Source: Clostridia bacterium (GTDB taxonomy: Bacteria > Bacillota > Clostridia > Oscillospirales > CAG-272). Taken from it: DNA of 64,000 nucleotides. Under the pieces are notes generated by a model. The model was not told the origin of the DNA. It saw only the letters and a list, made by a program, of their open reading frames with translations, and did not search any database. How positions within the stretch are numbered: position 1 is the first letter of the stretch; each line of letters opens with the position of its first letter. Location of the stretch: NCBI GenBank assembly GCA_017399145.1, contig JAFQEG010000041.1, positions 3,323 through 67,322 on the forward strand, in the 5' to 3' direction. This document shows positions 21,261 through 34,148 of the stretch, piece after piece. A program made the translations under genes and the position numbers.

Positions 21261-21665
21261 CTATTTAATACTAAACTTGTTAAATGAAGATGGTAGTAGG
21301 CTATCAAGAGTAGTAATTTTTGTTTCCTTACCATTGAATAAAACTACCTCTAATTGTGGTGGGCAAAGCTCAGACAAAAACTGCCTACATGCACCACAGG
21401 GATAAACAAAATCTGTAATTTTCTGCTTGCCACCTACAACTGAAATTGCTAAAAACTCACACTCTCCCTCGGAAATTGCCTTAGAAAGGGCAACCCTTTC
21501 TGCACATAAGCACTCGGAATAGGCAGAGTTTTCAACGTTACAGCCTGTATATATTTTTCCATTCTTACACAAAACCGAGGCGCCAACCTTAAAGCCAGAG
21601 TAGGGGGAATAGGAATTTTCCCTTACCCTTATTGCCTCGTTTATCAATTGAGAGTAATCCTTCAT
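21261..21665 (-). CDS. cdd: Cytidine deaminase
   Basis: Contains CAERVAL and PCGACRQ zinc-binding motifs; 134 aa. Confidence 0.93.
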   Translation of the reverse strand: MKDYSQLINEAIRVRENSYSPYSGFKVGASVLCKNGKIYTGCNVENSAYSECLCAERVALSKAISEGECEFLAISVVGGKQKITDFVYPCGACRQFLSELCPPQLEVVLFNGKETKITTLDSLLPSSFNKFSIK

Positions 21666-28019: not shown

Positions 28020-29504
28020 ATGTATAAAATAGGATTTGACAATAATAAGTATTTAAAGCTACAATCCGAGAAAATCAAAGAAAGAATTGCACAATTCGGT
28101 GGCAAGCTTTACCTAGAATTTGGAGGTAAGCTCTTCGACGACTTCCACGCATCAAGAGTTTTGCCAGGCTTCGAGCCAGATAGCAAAATTAGAATGCTAA
28201 CTGAATTAAAGGACCAAGCAGAAATAATAATTGCCGTAAACTCTGCCGATATAGAGAAAAACAAGGTAAGAGGTGACCTAGGTATTACCTACGACCTTGA
28301 TGTTTTGCGTCTTATTGATGCATTCCGTGGCTTCGGCTTGTACGTTGGTAGCGTAGTTTTGACTAAATATGATGCAAACTCAGGAGTTGAGGCATTCAAA
28401 ACAAAGCTTGAGGGATTAGGCATTAAGGTTTATAAGCACTACCCAATCAAAAATTATCCTTATGACATTGATTACATAGTAAGCGACGAGGGCTATGGCA
28501 AAAACGATTTTATCGAAACTGAAAGACCTTTAGTCGTAGTAACTGCACCAGGTCCCGGAAGTGGAAAAATGGGCACCTGCCTTTCCCAAATTTACCACGA
28601 ATATAAAAGAGGCATTAGCGCAGGCTATGCTAAATTTGAAACCTTCCCTGTGTGGAATATTCCCCTATCCCACCCAGTAAACGTAGCCTACGAGGCAGCA
28701 ACTGCAGACCTAAACGACATAAATATGATTGACCCATTCCACCTAGAAAATTACGGAATTACCTCTGTAAACTATAACAGAGACGTAGACATTTTCCCTG
28801 TGCTTCGTGCAATGTATGAGGGAATTATGGGTAAGTGTCCATATAAGTCCCCAACAGATATGGGTGTAAATATGGTTGGTTACTGTATTTTCGACGATGA
28901 GGCTGTAAGAAATGCGGCTAATAACGAAATAATAAGAAGATACTACAATGCACTTTGTCAACAAAGAAAGGGCAACCTTTGTGAGGAAGAGGTAAACAAA
29001 ATCAAATCTCTTATGACTCAAAGTGGAATCAATGCAAAGCAGAGAAAGTGCATTCAAATGGCGCTTGAAAAGGCACAGGAAACAGGTGCACCTGCTGCTG
29101 CAATTGAATTAAAGGACGGAAGAGTAGTTACAGGTAAAACCTCGTCACTACTTGGCGCTTCCTCAGCTGCACTTATAAACGCAGTAAAGGCAATTGCAGG
29201 AATTGATAAGGACGTAGATATTATATCTCATCAGGTTTTGGAGCCTGTGCAAAAGCTAAAGATTGAAAATCTTGGTAACCATAACCCAAGACTCCATACC
29301 GACGAGGTGCTAATTGCACTAGCAATCACCGCCGCAACAGACGACACAGCAAAAAAAGCTATGGACGCACTAAAGGAATTAAAGGGCACAGAGCTTCATT
29401 CCTCTGTAATCCTTTCTCCGGTTGACACCGCAACCTTTAGAAAGCTAGGCGTAAACCTAACCTGCGAGCCTGTATATCAATCCAAAAAGCTATATCATGG
29501 TTAA
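28020..29504 (+). CDS. DUF1846 (UPF0371) family protein
   Basis: The N-terminus GFDNNKYLKLQSEKIKERIAQFGGKLYLEFGGKLFDDFHASRVLPGF matches my recollection of UPF0371. Confidence 0.75.
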   Translation: MYKIGFDNNKYLKLQSEKIKERIAQFGGKLYLEFGGKLFDDFHASRVLPGFEPDSKIRMLTELKDQAEIIIAVNSADIEKNKVRGDLGITYDLDVLRLIDAFRGFGLYVGSVVLTKYDANSGVEAFKTKLEGLGIKVYKHYPIKNYPYDIDYIVSDEGYGKNDFIETERPLVVVTAPGPGSGKMGTCLSQIYHEYKRGISAGYAKFETFPVWNIPLSHPVNVAYEAATADLNDINMIDPFHLENYGITSVNYNRDVDIFPVLRAMYEGIMGKCPYKSPTDMGVNMVGYCIFDDEAVRNAANNEIIRRYYNALCQQRKGNLCEEEVNKIKSLMTQSGINAKQRKCIQMALEKAQETGAPAAAIELKDGRVVTGKTSSLLGASSAALINAVKAIAGIDKDVDIISHQVLEPVQKLKIENLGNHNPRLHTDEVLIALAITAATDDTAKKAMDALKELKGTELHSSVILSPVDTATFRKLGVNLTCEPVYQSKKLYHG

Positions 29505-29507
29505 AAC

Positions 29508-29540
29508 AAAAATCCGTGTGAATTTCACACGGATTTTTTT
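29508..29540. terminator. Bidirectional terminator; left copy of a 33-bp exact direct repeat
   Basis: AAAAATCCGTGTGAATTTCACACGGATTTTTTT, identical to 31959-31991. Serves DUF1846 (+) and the XRE gene (-). Confidence 0.9.
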
Positions 29541-29826
29541 ATTGATATTTTTTAATTATGCTTTTTAGGTCCTTGAGCATTGAAAGGTCGTTTTGACTAA
29601 GTCTTGAGTATTCATTAAGGCAGAGAAGACTGTCGGCACTAAGATTTAATATTTCACATATTCTTTTCAGTTGCTCTAAGCTAGGCTCTTGAATATCTCT
29701 TTCGATTTTCGAATATCCAGATTGGCTCATTGGAATTTTTTCGGCAACGTATTCCTGAGAAAAATCTAAATCCTCACGTGCATTTCGTATTTTTTCACCG
29801 ATTTTCAACAAACTCACCACCTTCAA
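29539..29826 (-). CDS. XRE-family helix-turn-helix transcriptional regulator
   Basis: IGEKIRNAREDLDFSQEYVAEKIPMSQSGYSKIERD is a classic Cro/CI-type HTH. The start is non-ATG. The listed TTG is at 29826, but the TTG at 29808 behind AAGGTGG is more likely. Confidence 0.85.
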   Translation of the reverse strand: MKVVSLLKIGEKIRNAREDLDFSQEYVAEKIPMSQSGYSKIERDIQEPSLEQLKRICEILNLSADSLLCLNEYSRLSQNDLSMLKDLKSIIKKYQ

Positions 29827-29832
29827 TAGAAG

Positions 29833-29884
29833 TATATCATTTTCGAATAAAAATATTGACTTTTATTCGAAAATGATATATAAT
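29833..29884. promoter_or_regulatory. Perfect 20-bp inverted repeat (operator) overlapping a consensus promoter
   Basis: TATATCATTTTCGAATAAAA (29833-29852), 8-nt spacer, TTTTATTCGAAAATGATATA (29861-29880). The -35 TTGACT is at 29856-29861 and the -10 TATAAT at 29879-29884, with a 17-nt spacer. Confidence 0.8.
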
Positions 29885-29954
29885 TAAGGCGAATATAATA
29901 AAATAGAATAATTTTATTTAAAATATTCAATTTTAGAAAAGGAGAAGGTGAATA

Positions 29955-30686
29955 GTGGATAATAATCATGAGATCATTTCACATATTTCCATAAAAAGCA
30001 AATATGTAAATACAGTTGAATTATATTTTGGAGATAAAGTAGATAAAGATTTTTTAGCCTACATTAGAGACTACAAAAATTTAAATGTAAATGTAGTGAA
30101 AGAAGTGGGCGAAATGAAAGAGTATAATATAACATTCTGTTATTCAGGAGTTAATTATCAGGTCCCATATGGCAAAGATGGAGAAGAGCTTGAAATAAAT
30201 CACAAATATTTTGCTGGACAAAAGGAGGCGAACTTCAAAGTTCCGTTTGGTCAACACTACAAGGATAAGCAAAAATCTGAGGTTGATAGCGGACGAAGAA
30301 AAGCGTTAGGACGTGTGAGATTAGCACCCATAACCTTCGGTATATGCCTTCCTATTGTAGTGATATTTTGGATAATGGCATTGACTATAGCGTCCTCAAT
30401 TGACCCAAGTAAAATGACGTCGCACGCTTCAATGATTATGGAAGGTGGATTTGTGGCAAGCTTTTTTATAGCAATTGCAGGCTTGGCTTTTACAATAAGA
30501 AGTGTTAAAGCAAGAAAGAGAATTGAAAAGGTAGCTAATGATTTGAAAAATCAAATAGACAATCAGGTTGACATAACCACATATAATTTACATAGCATAG
30601 GTGGATATAGTAGATTGTCTGCAATTGCTAACGTTATATCAGTAATTATTTCTATTGTTGTATTTATAGTGATTAAATCAATTTAA
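29955..30686 (+). CDS. Membrane protein, unknown function (soluble ~115-aa N-domain plus 3 TM helices)
   Basis: GGAGAAGG RBS, 5 nt, then GTG at 29955. TM segments are ITFGICLPIVVIFWIMALTIA, GGFVASFFIAIAGLAFTI and AIANVISVIISIVVFIVI. Confidence 0.6.
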   Translation: MDNNHEIISHISIKSKYVNTVELYFGDKVDKDFLAYIRDYKNLNVNVVKEVGEMKEYNITFCYSGVNYQVPYGKDGEELEINHKYFAGQKEANFKVPFGQHYKDKQKSEVDSGRRKALGRVRLAPITFGICLPIVVIFWIMALTIASSIDPSKMTSHASMIMEGGFVASFFIAIAGLAFTIRSVKARKRIEKVANDLKNQIDNQVDITTYNLHSIGGYSRLSAIANVISVIISIVVFIVIKSI

Positions 30687-30710
30687 TATTTTCAAAAGGA
30701 GAAAAATAAT

Positions 30711-31958
30711 ATGGCATTTTGTTCAAATTGTGGTGCTGAGGTTTTTGGAAAATTCTGCTCTAATTGTGGAAACAATTGCGGCAATGAGCAAGATCTAGTA
30801 AGGTCTCAAGAAGGAAGACAAAATGAAAATATCAAGGAAACTATTAACAAGCTTTATACATTAAGAGCAGGTATTTCTTGCTCAGTGCAAGAAAAGGAAA
30901 AATACGAAAAAATCAGGGATAATATAAAAGTATGTATAGATAATACAGAAAAAGAAATAAAGGAAAAAGAGGGGGAAGTGTTCGATAATAAAGGTTATAT
31001 TTTGTCTAGAAAAATGATTTCTGCCAAAAATCCCTCGGAAAAACTAAAAAAATTGCAGGATAGAATTGAAGGCTATGAAAAAGAAGCAGAAAGATACAAT
31101 AAAATAACTATTACACTTTATGTTATAGCAGGTATACTTGTTGCTTTTGCTGCGTTTATTATGTTGGGAGGATACATGGTGTTTATGCCTCGATCTGGTG
31201 GTGAGCATTGGCTTATCATAATTCCTTGTGCTATTGTAGCTGCGATTGTAGGATATACCGGTATGCTAAAATTTTTACCGAAAAAAGAACAAGCTCAAAA
31301 TAATGCATATAATCTCAAAAGCGGAGAAGAATATAAGAAAATTTCAAAAGAAATTAGTATAGCCTCTAATGCAAAAAATGATATTAGCTATGCGGAAAAT
31401 AGTATAAGAGAGCTTGAGAATCAATTGTCTGTCTTGAATGCATCAAAATCAAAGGAATGTGAAAGATTAAAGCGCGAGCCTATTCCACATTTAATATGTG
31501 CAAACGGAATTTATGATGTACTAGTTAGAGAATATTCAGCGCTTATCGACACCCGTGACTGGGCAAATCTTGACCTTGTAATTTTCTATTTTGAAACAGG
31601 CAGAGCAAAAAGCATGCAAGAGGCTTTACAGCTAGTTGACAGACAAAGACAAAACGATAGAATTGTAGAGGCAATAAATGAAGCATCTTATCAAATTTGC
31701 AATACAATCAATGCAGGAATTGAGCATATACAAAATGTAGTAGTAGGCTGTGCGAAAATTCTATCAACTCAGCTTGATGAAATCGCAAGTCAGCAAAAAG
31801 CATTGGGTAGAGAAATTTCCAACCTACAAATATCTGCAAGTACTATGCAAAACGCACTAAAGGCAAAATCAAACGTATCAAGTAATCAATTAGCAGAGGA
31901 TATTCATCAAATGCGCATTTACGCAGAAAATGAAGCTATAAGAAAACGCAATTCGTAA
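30711..31958 (+). CDS. Zinc-ribbon / coiled-coil / 2-TM protein, unknown function
   Basis: AAAGGAGAAAA RBS. N-terminal CSNCGAEVFGKFCSNCG (CxxC-x8-CxxC), a Lys/Glu-rich coiled coil, a TM hairpin (ITLYVIAGILVAFAAFIMLGGY and WLIIIPCAIVAAIVGYTGML), then a ~220-aa helical C-domain. Confidence 0.65.
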   Translation: MAFCSNCGAEVFGKFCSNCGNNCGNEQDLVRSQEGRQNENIKETINKLYTLRAGISCSVQEKEKYEKIRDNIKVCIDNTEKEIKEKEGEVFDNKGYILSRKMISAKNPSEKLKKLQDRIEGYEKEAERYNKITITLYVIAGILVAFAAFIMLGGYMVFMPRSGGEHWLIIIPCAIVAAIVGYTGMLKFLPKKEQAQNNAYNLKSGEEYKKISKEISIASNAKNDISYAENSIRELENQLSVLNASKSKECERLKREPIPHLICANGIYDVLVREYSALIDTRDWANLDLVIFYFETGRAKSMQEALQLVDRQRQNDRIVEAINEASYQICNTINAGIEHIQNVVVGCAKILSTQLDEIASQQKALGREISNLQISASTMQNALKAKSNVSSNQLAEDIHQMRIYAENEAIRKRNS

Positions 31959-31991
31959 AAAAATCCGTGTGAATTTCACACGGATTTTTTT
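31959..31991. terminator. Bidirectional terminator; right copy of the 33-bp exact direct repeat
   Basis: Identical to 29508-29540. Serves the 30711 gene (+) and recG (-). Confidence 0.9.
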
Positions 31992-32012
31992 TGTTTTATC
32001 TACACAGGGTAG

Positions 32013-34148
32013 CTAATTTATAGTATTTGACTTTGCGTTGCACATTGCCTCAACGCGCTCTTTTAATAGTGCGTGACACTCACTAGATAGGTCAGGGTCC
32101 TTTTCCAAAAGTCCCTTTGCGTACTCAAAGGCAGAATGAAGCAATTTAGTATCAGAGCAATTTTTTGCAATACCCAAGTCAAGCTGACCTGACTGTCTAA
32201 CTGATGATGAGGCAGAGAAGAAGTCGCCAGGACCACGCATATGAAGGTCCCTTTCTGCAATTGTATAGCCGTCGTAAATTGTCTTAATTATATTAAGTCT
32301 TTCAACGGACCTTTCGTTTTTGGAATCGGAAACTAAAACGCAATAGGATTGAGTAGCACCACGACCTACACGACCTCTTAGCTGATGTAATTGAGAAAGA
32401 CCAAATCTTTCTGCATTTTCAACAATCATAAGGGTAGCATTAGGTACGTTTACACCTACCTCGATAACTGTGGTAGATACTAAAACTTGGATACGTCCCT
32501 CAGCAAAATCCATCATAATAGCATCCTTTTCCTTGCCCTTCATCTTGCCGTGCAGGAAAGCTATATTATACTCAGGAAACACTTCGTTTTTAAGATGCTC
32601 AGCATACTCAACTGCCGCCTTTAAGGGTGGCAAGCCCTCGTCAAATAGTGATGCAAATGGGTCATAGTCGGAGAAGTTGTCAACATCCTCCTTCTTTTCC
32701 TCAACAGAGGGACAAACAATATAAACCTGATGACCCTCTTCAACCTGTTTTTTAATAAAGCCGTTTAGCCTTGTGCGATAGCCCTCGTCAACCACGTAGG
32801 TATTTACCTTTTTTCTGCCAGGGGGCATTTCGTCAATAAGAGAAATATCAAGGTCGCCATACATCATAAATGAAAGAGTCCTAGGAATAGGCGTTGCACT
32901 CATAACTAGTGTATGACTGAAAAGGCCCTTGTCGGAAAGAGAAGAGCGTTGCTTTGCACCGAAACGGTGTTGCTCGTCGGTTATAGCAAGAGCTAAATTC
33001 TTAAATTCAACTCCGTCTTGAATAAGTGCGTGTGTGCCAATTATAAATTGAATTTCACCTGATTTTAGCTTGGCAAGTGTCTGATTTTTCTCTTTTCTTG
33101 AGGTTGAGCCGGTCAAAAGCTCACAACTAATTTCTAGCTTTTCAAAAAGAGGCTTCATAGACTCATAGTGCTGAGTTGCCAAAATTTCAGTAGGTGCCAT
33201 AAGTGCGCATTGATAACCATTTTTACAGGTGATGTATGCGCTAGTCGTTGCAATTAAGGTTTTACCGCTACCAACGTCACCTACAACAATTCTATTCATA
33301 GCGACACGTCTGCCCGTGCCATCAACGTCGCACATATCCCCTTCAATTTCCTTAATAGCCTTTTTCTGTGCATTGGTTGGAGAATAAGGTAAAAGTGCAA
33401 GCAATGGTGAGCAATCAACGTCAAAAAGTGCAGGGGCGTGGCTGTTTTTGTGTACTGTTTTAATTTTAGAAAGAGAAAGTGCAAATAAAAATAGCTCGTC
33501 AAAGGTAAGCCTTTTTATAGCTCTTTCTAGTGCGTCCTCGCTACTAGGTGCATGAATGTTTTTAAGTGCGGTTTGTAGAGTAGGAAGCGAATAATCAAGT
33601 CTTATATCCTCTGGCAAAAAGTCCTTTACCATAGTAGGCACGCTTGCAAGAATTTCCTCTTGTAGCTTTGCAAAAAGCCTTTGATTCATACCGTGGAACA
33701 AAGGATAAACAGGAATTAGTGGGTCAAGCGTCTTAATAGGTGAAATTGGCTCATAGGACGGGGAAGTCATATACAGAGTACGCTTTTCTCGAGTTACCTT
33801 GCCCCAAAATCTAAAGGTGGCACCCGTGTGGAAAACATCACGTAGGTAATTTTGATTAAAGTAGGTTATATTTACCTTGCCGGTATCGTCAAAGGCACGA
33901 AACTTCAAAAGTGTCATTCCTCTTTTCACCATAGCAACCGTCGGCTCGCTTGCAACTGTCAATATGTAGGAATGATATTCCTCGTAGCAATCCTCGTTTG
34001 CAAGCTCCTTAACGTCGCCTCTATTTTGGTATGCCCTAGGAAAATAGTAAAGCATATCATTTACAGTAAAAAGTCCGGCAGAGTGTAGGACTTTTTCTAT
34101 TTTATCGCCTACACCGTATAGGTCCTTAACTGGTGAATTTAATTCCAT
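32013..34148 (-). CDS. recG: ATP-dependent DNA helicase RecG
   Basis: Wedge-domain N-terminus, Walker A GDVGSGKT, DEQHRFG and QLRGRVGRG; 711 aa. Confidence 0.93.
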   Translation of the reverse strand: MELNSPVKDLYGVGDKIEKVLHSAGLFTVNDMLYYFPRAYQNRGDVKELANEDCYEEYHSYILTVASEPTVAMVKRGMTLLKFRAFDDTGKVNITYFNQNYLRDVFHTGATFRFWGKVTREKRTLYMTSPSYEPISPIKTLDPLIPVYPLFHGMNQRLFAKLQEEILASVPTMVKDFLPEDIRLDYSLPTLQTALKNIHAPSSEDALERAIKRLTFDELFLFALSLSKIKTVHKNSHAPALFDVDCSPLLALLPYSPTNAQKKAIKEIEGDMCDVDGTGRRVAMNRIVVGDVGSGKTLIATTSAYITCKNGYQCALMAPTEILATQHYESMKPLFEKLEISCELLTGSTSRKEKNQTLAKLKSGEIQFIIGTHALIQDGVEFKNLALAITDEQHRFGAKQRSSLSDKGLFSHTLVMSATPIPRTLSFMMYGDLDISLIDEMPPGRKKVNTYVVDEGYRTRLNGFIKKQVEEGHQVYIVCPSVEEKKEDVDNFSDYDPFASLFDEGLPPLKAAVEYAEHLKNEVFPEYNIAFLHGKMKGKEKDAIMMDFAEGRIQVLVSTTVIEVGVNVPNATLMIVENAERFGLSQLHQLRGRVGRGATQSYCVLVSDSKNERSVERLNIIKTIYDGYTIAERDLHMRGPGDFFSASSSVRQSGQLDLGIAKNCSDTKLLHSAFEYAKGLLEKDPDLSSECHALLKERVEAMCNAKSNTIN

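Follow-up and report, generated by a model that had tools for sequence, protein, structure and literature searches.

A repressor-led gene module between two copies of a bidirectional terminator in uncultured Clostridia: a probable case of insertion with long target duplication

How does a small group of genes come to lie between two identical transcription terminators when no integrase or transposase lies with it? This question is raised by a stretch of 64,000 nucleotides (nt) from a Clostridia bacterium (assembly GCA_017399145.1, contig JAFQEG010000041.1, positions 3,323 to 67,322; hereafter the window), in which an islet of 2.45 kb separates the convergent genes DUF1846 and recG. The islet holds a gene for an XRE-family repressor, a gene for a membrane protein (MEM243), and a gene for a zinc-ribbon protein (ZNR415). 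In our reading, to which we give a probability of roughly two in three, it is an accessory, repressor-controlled module that sits in the terminator shared by the two flanking genes; its insertion duplicated about 37 bp of the target, is old, and has been followed by precise loss and by exchange of cargo. The duplicated terminator, the empty site, the polymorphism of presence and of cargo within species, and the recurrence of the pattern elsewhere were all found directly in the genomes compared.

The repeat is a 33-mer, AAAAATCCGTGTGAATTTCACACGGATTTTTTT, present at 29508-29540 and, identical in every base, at 31959-31991, as a preliminary description of this DNA had reported; none of 100 shuffled sequences contained any match to it. 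The left copy lies between the stop codons of DUF1846 (29502-29504, + strand) and XRE (29539-29541, - strand), and the right copy lies between those of ZNR415 (31956-31958, + strand) and recG (32013-32015, - strand), which is the layout described before. On either strand, each copy folds into a stem of 14-16 bp followed by a U-tract, with fold energies of -18.5 to -20.4 kcal/mol (z of -5.1 to -6.6), and a terminator scan scored both copies as terminator-like. With a GC-containing stem-loop, a U-tract on both strands, and convergent genes on its two sides, each copy is predicted to be a bidirectional intrinsic terminator, again in line with the preliminary description. The whole genome (G000), a metagenome-assembled genome of 1.83 Mb that is 76% complete and consists of 44 contigs, contains only these two copies, both in the window. 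Hence, the genome search proposed earlier rules out a genome-wide repeat. The interior, which had seemed AT-rich by eye, has a GC content of 32.7% and falls at the 1.6th percentile of same-size windows of the genome (mean 39.0%, standard deviation 2.5%). Scans of the three interior genes against Pfam, PHROGs, PADLOC, and NCBIfam detected no integrase or transposase domain, as expected from the first inspection.

In 48 species of the genus (orthologues of DUF1846 being present in 48 of its 50 species), and in metagenome contigs that carry close ZNR homologues, we examined what follows DUF1846 downstream. The site was found in four states. In state A (empty), DUF1846 and recG converge on a single hairpin. 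State B, with XRE only, was observed in ten species of one clade, in which the hairpin on the recG side bears no relation to the left terminator. State C, with XRE and ZNR, was found in L049, L052, L055, L056, and the deep-branching G041, and state D, with XRE, MEM, and ZNR, in G000, G047 (the same as L043), and L044. The module has the same hairpin stem at both of its ends in the species of G000, in G047, and in the species of G045, and at least eight independent assemblies of different samples and sources share this architecture. A scan of 596 Gb for the stem pattern returned only chance hairpins, except for those of G045 and G047, plus one unrelated viral match, and Rfam gave no match at its gathering threshold in the islet or in the insert of L049.

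The empty site is best seen in G045, where the arrangement is DUF1846-TAAAACAAAAATCCGTGTGATTTCACACGGATTTTTGTTTTA-recG, with one hairpin in the 61 bp between the convergent genes. The junction reads ...CATGGC-TAA-AACAAAAATCCGTGTGATTTCACACGGATTTTTGTTTTATC...recG, one hairpin with exactly the outer flanks of the window's two copies, the left copy's on its left and the right copy's on its right. The arrangement that had been imagined by removing one copy and the interior is therefore a real one. Compared with the occupied loci L052, L055, and L056, G045 is 98.9-99.1% identical at the nucleotide level in DUF1846 and 98.6% identical at the 3' end of recG. Because G045 is thus conspecific with these occupied genomes, the islet is a precise presence/absence polymorphism inside one species. 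The mismatches between the flanks of G045 and those of L052 or L055 are spread evenly up to the hairpin, with no excess divergence at the junctions, which speaks against import by homologous recombination together with divergent flanks; a conspecific donor would still be conceivable.

Comparison of the relatives also indicates the length of the duplicated segment. In L044, L049, L043, and L052, the right copy reads TAAAA(C/T)A(G)AAAAATCC... and matches the left copy's TAAAACAAAAATCC... back to the TAA; because of this match, the ancestral repeat is, by alignment, about 37 nt long and takes in the stop codon of DUF1846. It follows that ZNR415 ends on a duplicated copy of that stop codon. The earlier proposal of an insertion at the terminator hairpin is supported by the empty site of G045, but the duplicated segment has about 37 nt rather than 33. 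In addition, the hexamer GTTTTA follows the right copy only, where it pairs with TAAAAC to give a perfect palindrome of 43 bp, as at the empty site. Such a pattern would be expected from the partial duplication of a pre-existing longer palindromic terminator.

The unit that recurs at this site is smaller than the three-gene cassette of the preliminary description. The recurrent core consists of two genes, XRE and the divergently oriented ZNR415, and MEM243 is an extra gene: it is present in G047 (52% identity) and L044 (64%) and absent from the conspecific L049 as well as from L052 and L055. The flanks of L049 are 98-99% identical to those of the window, yet this locus has no MEM243 and a very different N-terminal two-thirds of ZNR. 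Up to the start codon of the cargo, L049 shares 99.3% identity over the XRE-promoter-leader region, and L052 and L055 share about 90%, with the leader and ribosome-binding site conserved to about 29948. Within the ZNR orthologues, the zinc ribbon (92-96%) and the C-terminal 150 residues (93-96%) are well conserved, and the coiled-coil and transmembrane (TM) middle has 20-73% identity (20-64% for residues 126-200). Moreover, the XRE-promoter DNA of G000 is closer to that of L052 (89.5%) than to that of G047 (84.9%), whereas the order is reversed for DUF1846 (84.5% for L052 and 89.5% for G047), which suggests exchange between species. We also considered a three-gene cassette newly acquired by G000 and rejected it: 15 other genomes or assemblies have an XRE orthologue at the DUF1846/recG locus, MEM243 is dispensable to the unit, and sister species (G047, L044, and the species of G045) possess the module too. 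A further promoter-like site, TTGACA-16-TAGAAT (11/12 matches), was noticed at 31636-31663 within ZNR415; it lies near where the conserved C-terminal part begins and a little downstream of the recombination breakpoint (about 31500). The coordinates of the features are collected in Table 1.

Table 1. Features of the islet and its flanks in the window, and further duplicated hairpins in the same genome (contig:position)
Feature	Position	Strand	Details
Left terminator copy	29502..29540	.	TAAAAC, A-tract, 11-bp stem, T-tract; exact 33-mer is 29508-29540
Right terminator copy	31956..31998	.	Right flank GTTTTA completes extended palindrome; exact 33-mer is 31959-31991
DUF1846 gene, left flanking core gene	28020..29504	+	Pfam DUF1846 N and C domains, E 1e-180 and 2e-68
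recG, right flanking core gene, convergent with DUF1846	32013..34148	-	Pfam RecG_wedge, DEAD, Helicase_C, RecG_dom3_C
XRE-family helix-turn-helix repressor gene, 95 aa, conserved left end of module	29539..29826	-	Pfam HTH_3, E 1e-14
Perfect 20+20-bp palindrome, presumed XRE operator	29833-29852 and 29861-29880 (29833..29884 with promoter)	+	Overlaps promoter
Near-consensus promoter TTGACT-17-TATAAT, presumed cargo promoter	29856-29884	+	11/12 match; opposite direction to XRE
MEM243, membrane protein, optional cargo	29955..30686	+	No family in Pfam, PHROGs, PADLOC, NCBIfam
ZNR415, core cargo	30711..31958	+	N-terminal zinc ribbon, long coiled coil, 2-TM helical hairpin, conserved C-terminal helical domain
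Segment differing from conspecific L049	29949..31500	+	MEM243 and divergent N-terminal two-thirds of ZNR; 778 bp in L049 (blastn breakpoints)
Further duplicated hairpins in G000	C17:40511/42495; C6:54511/55730/57916; C43:4906/7478; C44:~9710/12650		

Taken together, these observations could be explained as follows. The XRE repressor would diverge from a sigma-70 promoter overlapped by the palindromic operator, and this promoter would drive ZNR415, in G000 with the additional membrane gene MEM243 ahead of it. The module would have entered the single bidirectional intrinsic terminator common to the convergent DUF1846 and recG, and its insertion would have duplicated about 37 bp of the target, comprising the stop codon, the A-tract, the hairpin, and the T-tract. 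Since the target was duplicated, all four transcription units would keep a terminator. Since no recombinase is encoded, we class the event as insertion with long target duplication, a process that is reportedly also ascribed to Nobusato et al. 2000. The two repeats would then permit precise loss, which leaves one hairpin, and the cargo between the conserved leader and the conserved C-terminus of ZNR may have been swapped by homologous recombination. As for the molecular mechanism, the duplication may have arisen from cleavage at the base of an extruded cruciform followed by fill-in, or from stalling of a replication fork at the hairpin with template switching; recombination between the repeats over short homology could account for the loss and perhaps for re-integration of a circle.

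The arrangement of an XRE-led module that lies between convergent genes, with a copy of a duplicated terminator hairpin on each side, was also found elsewhere: in G000, in a deep relative, and at further loci in metagenomes. In G000 itself, an exact 33-nt terminator repeat, AAAAAAAGACGGATTTTTCCGTCTTTTTTATTT, occurs at 21595 and 22317 of contig C2 (C2:21595-22349), where it brackets a second repressor gene (XRE2, 124 aa) and a divergent gene for an 84-aa Cys-rich protein (CYS84). The stop codon of XRE2 comes from the duplicated hairpin copy. Because both G045 and G047 have a single hairpin and no insert at the corresponding site, the hairpin is ancestral and the duplication derived at C2. Homologues of CYS84 at another locus in G001 and G016 have no such repeats. 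Modules composed of a helix-turn-helix (HTH) gene and a ZNR gene at unrelated loci provide further cases. At L157, an exact 30-mer stands on both sides of the module, between genes for an AP-endonuclease and an M23-peptidase, and in its relatives L174 and L175 these two genes are adjacent and share one hairpin, that is, the site is empty. The two hairpins of the L153 module differ by one compensatory base pair, and the flanking repeat of the L036 module is 44 nt long with one mismatch. On contig C44 of G000, the same 10-bp stem is found on each side of ZNR409-XRE-ZNR427.

A genome-wide count in G000 yielded 1046 perfect hairpins with a 9-bp stem, among which about 20 same-stem pairs lie within 0.3-8 kb of each other; by our own estimate, 0.02-0.05 such pairs would be expected by chance. 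In several of them (on C2, C6, C17, C43, and C44), the repeat is the hairpin alone and encloses one or two genes. The hairpins on C17, C6, C43, C44, and C20 bracket a 608-aa secreted protein, a CoiA-like gene, a fucosidase, an 808-aa protein, and two ZNR paralogues, and at C20:57420-63920 one hairpin occurs in five copies within 6.5 kb. At the DUF1846/recG site of the deep-branching G041 (contig C11, locus L095), homologues of XRE (69%) and ZNR (37%) are present and a different hairpin, AAAAACCGACACTCTGTGTCGGTTTTT, is duplicated at both ends. This hairpin resembles the single native terminators of the relatives G060 and G021. G041 may represent an independent insertion or concerted evolution. 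A bolder and speculative extension, which we regard as having perhaps one chance among several, is that a structure-specific pathway free of recombinase genes targets intrinsic terminator hairpins, duplicating each hairpin in full, and that small XRE-led two-gene 'terminator-hopping' cassettes exploit it. If so, such cassettes would come with a terminator on either side as insulation and could exit precisely, and this gut Clostridia lineage would have in the pathway a general means of acquiring accessory genes (with about 20 duplicated terminator pairs per 1.8 Mb).

Several points weigh against our reading of the DUF1846/recG locus. A tree of DUF1846 places the empty G045 within a group of occupied conspecifics and sister species; because of this position, it is most likely a secondary precise deletion between the repeats and not a virgin target. 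The polarity of the duplication at this locus would then have to be read from the extended palindrome and, by analogy, from the C2 locus. The insertion is old as judged from its distribution, being common to three or more species, and the XRE genes of states B, C, and D are clear orthologues from three clades of the genus whose tree follows the clades. This distribution implies that the insertion either is very old and was lost many times or was gained repeatedly. With an old insertion, selection on the stem or gene conversion would be needed to keep the two copies nearly identical within each lineage. Furthermore, about two-thirds of the ZNR-family loci examined have no flanking hairpin repeat, and the matches that bear on the role of the cargo all lie below threshold. 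We also looked for copies of the same module at new loci, as recent transposition would leave them, and found none; ZNR proteins at other loci are 24-39% identical.

Which other processes could leave two hairpins here? The hairpin might belong to the module as its own terminal direct repeats, so that the single hairpin of G045 would be a 'solo' recombination scar. The nested position of G045, probably a deletion product, agrees with this, and so does the presence of GTGT/ACAC in the stem of four of the five distinct bracketing hairpins. At C2, however, the single hairpins of the outgroups G045 and G047 show that the hairpin predates the insert; the hairpin of G041 is like the native single terminators of G060 and G021; the outer GTTTTA that completes a palindrome with the inner TAAAAC is what a pre-existing longer palindrome would leave; and the hairpins are different in every lineage. 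We therefore regard an element-borne hairpin as improbable, though it deserves more weight than the other alternatives. Even less credible is a decayed or non-autonomous integrative element resembling a cis-mobilizable element (CIME), in which the two hairpins would be attL and attR and a tyrosine or serine recombinase would act in trans. Direct repeats of 30-40 bp with precise presence and absence are indeed products of site-specific integration. No integrase was found in or beside the islet in about ten assemblies, however, and the genome (76% complete) contains no third copy of the hairpin that would mark an attP-bearing partner; nor does the hairpin appear in viral contigs in a related context. 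In addition, the insert runs from stop codon to stop codon with no space for lost genes. Because each insertion duplicates a different, locus-specific hairpin, which a sequence-specific recombinase would not be expected to do, both this explanation and an element-borne hairpin are disfavoured.

A similarly small chance, if anything slightly smaller, is left to two unrelated terminators that were homogenised by gene conversion without any duplication of a target. The copies are identical within G000 and within G041 and different between lineages, which resembles concerted evolution. Conversion requires prior homology, though, and the ten XRE-only species retain unrelated hairpins on the two sides; moreover, the loops of the two copies differ freely in G047, L049, and L052. 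This explanation also leaves the empty-site junctions, which fall exactly at the repeat, without a cause, and the clean polarity at C2 is contrary to it. An artefact of assembly or binning might be suspected in a genome that is an incomplete metagenome-assembled one in 44 contigs, but the same architecture in the independent assemblies noted above makes it negligible. A repeat of 33 bp is, as a general matter and not one specific to these assemblies, shorter than the final k-mers usual in assemblers, which also counts against an artefact. Finally, an element of the IS200/IS605 type (palindrome-associated transposable element, PATE), in which subterminal hairpins are part of the element and the target is not duplicated, was rejected: the empty site retains the hairpin, and no Y1 transposase (PF01797) was detected in G000, with positive results for the controls. 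Insertion with duplication of a pre-existing terminator thus remains our preferred reading.

The 3' site of DUF1846 is subject to other changes as well. In some relatives, the left copy is split in its loop by a non-coding element, of 276 bp in L049 (4316-4590) and of 358 bp in L052, L055, and L056. This element is rich in small hairpins and ATATCACT words and has a terminator of its own, and pieces of it are found on six contigs of G000; the left hairpin of the window is not interrupted by it. In L004, L009, L016, L018, L023, L025, L026, G052, G060, and G063, one to three tandem units of about 130 nt immediately follow the DUF1846 stop codon. A GGGTTCCCC...GGGGGTTC hairpin is part of some of these units, and G000 contains seven such motifs. 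The units seem to be an unclassified family of intergenic repeats that makes use of this site too. Besides, the sequence of the DUF1846 3' hairpin differs in nearly every species (L003-L032 and L057-L101), and since the flanking protein stays 81-97% identical, terminator turnover at this position is very fast.

We also examined what the module might encode. XRE matches transcriptional repressor and regulator families of PHROGs in addition to its Pfam domain, and an RstR-like match in NCBIfam lies below the cut-off. MEM243 has homologues in three clusters only among 5.8 billion proteins. The ZNR415 family comprises 1365 clusters at 50% identity (686 at E <= 1e-30), has no Pfam domain, and is represented elsewhere in G000 by six paralogous matches at four other loci. 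Its conserved motifs are LYxLRAGxS and RDWxNLDLxIYYxETGRA...EALQLVDRxRQ. Neither ZNR415 nor MEM243 gave a match above the cut-offs of Pfam, PHROGs, PADLOC, or NCBIfam. For residues 113-204 of ZNR415, a match to SLATT_1 (NF033634) scored 19.8 bits (E 5.7e-4), below the curated cut-off of 41 bits. The AlphaFold2 model of ZNR415 is all helical, with a confidence score (pLDDT) of 78. A Foldseek search with it against the PDB found nothing at E <= 1e-3, only generic coiled coils with TM-scores <= 0.34, and a PDB profile search returned weak matches to ClyA-type pore formers (alpha-pore-forming toxins; E of about 3e-3), which we do not trust for a coiled-coil query. The XRE gene, the palindrome that overlaps a strong promoter as a presumed operator, and the membrane nature of the cargo point to a membrane protein under tight repression, and we infer that XRE regulates the cargo. 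A membrane-perturbing effector of defence, exclusion, or addiction is a tentative assignment that we consider possible and somewhat less probable than not. Given its hypervariable middle (residues 26-263) and repressor control, the ZNR family, unannotated and large (about 1,400 clusters at 50% identity), is a reasonable candidate for a role in conflict or defence.

The locus offers a comparative case of gain and loss of small modules without mobility genes, with occupied and empty sites in one species and at two loci, and it indicates bidirectional terminators between convergent genes as a landing pad. Insertions of this kind may be nearly neutral, as duplication of the terminator keeps the neighbouring genes correctly terminated. 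If the process is general, it would extend insertion with long target duplication beyond restriction-modification and tie it to DNA structure.

Known systems share some of these features. In CIMEs and other non-autonomous att-flanked elements, recombinase-less DNA also lies between direct repeats located at a core gene's 3' end and is polymorphic in presence, but no cognate integrase or attP was found in the present genome, and the repeats are specific to the locus rather than to the element. Insertion sequences (IS) and miniature inverted-repeat transposable elements (MITEs) that target repetitive extragenic palindromic (REP) or terminator hairpins (PMC1525189) likewise use a palindromic extragenic hairpin as the insertion site, and the loop element of L049, L052, and L055 is, as with these elements, a small non-coding insertion inside a hairpin. 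Such elements split the hairpin, have ends of their own, and make a short duplication or none, whereas the islet lies between two whole hairpins and has no terminal inverted repeats. Integron gene cassettes would be recognised by an attC site with R/L boxes and by an intI integrase with attI; the hairpins of the islet are terminators made of an A-tract, a stem, and a T-tract that differ between loci. As in defence and addiction modules controlled by XRE or C proteins, a small HTH repressor is accompanied by a presumed palindromic operator over the promoter of the adjacent effector gene, and the helix with a 2-TM hairpin in ZNR415, with its weak SLATT_1 match, recalls SLATT-type 2-TM effectors; unlike in those systems, all matches of the islet are below the family cut-offs, and a PADLOC scan of its cargo gave no known defence family. 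The module also differs from type II toxin-antitoxin systems with a co-transcribed XRE antitoxin in that XRE and the cargo are divergent and the cargo has a separate promoter.

The strongest resemblance is to insertion with long target duplication, described for restriction-modification units whose flanking repeats are unique, exceed 30 bp, and overlap genes at their 3' ends (Furuta, Abe and Kobayashi 2010; PMC2853133). As in those cases, the islet is a unit of a few kb without transposase or integrase; its direct repeats exceed 30 bp, have no further copy in the genome, overlap the flanking genes at their 3' ends, and are single at the related empty site (G045, and C2 in G045 and G047); and the insert is lower in GC. 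The published cases carry restriction-modification genes and come mostly from naturally competent Proteobacteria (PMC2853133), whereas the cargo here is XRE with membrane proteins, without restriction or modification domains, in uncultured Clostridia. Terminators and palindromes are not mentioned in that paper (PMC2853133), and at the loci described here it is in every case a complete bidirectional terminator hairpin that has been duplicated. Of the processes described so far, insertion with long target duplication is the closest to that of these XRE-led modules.

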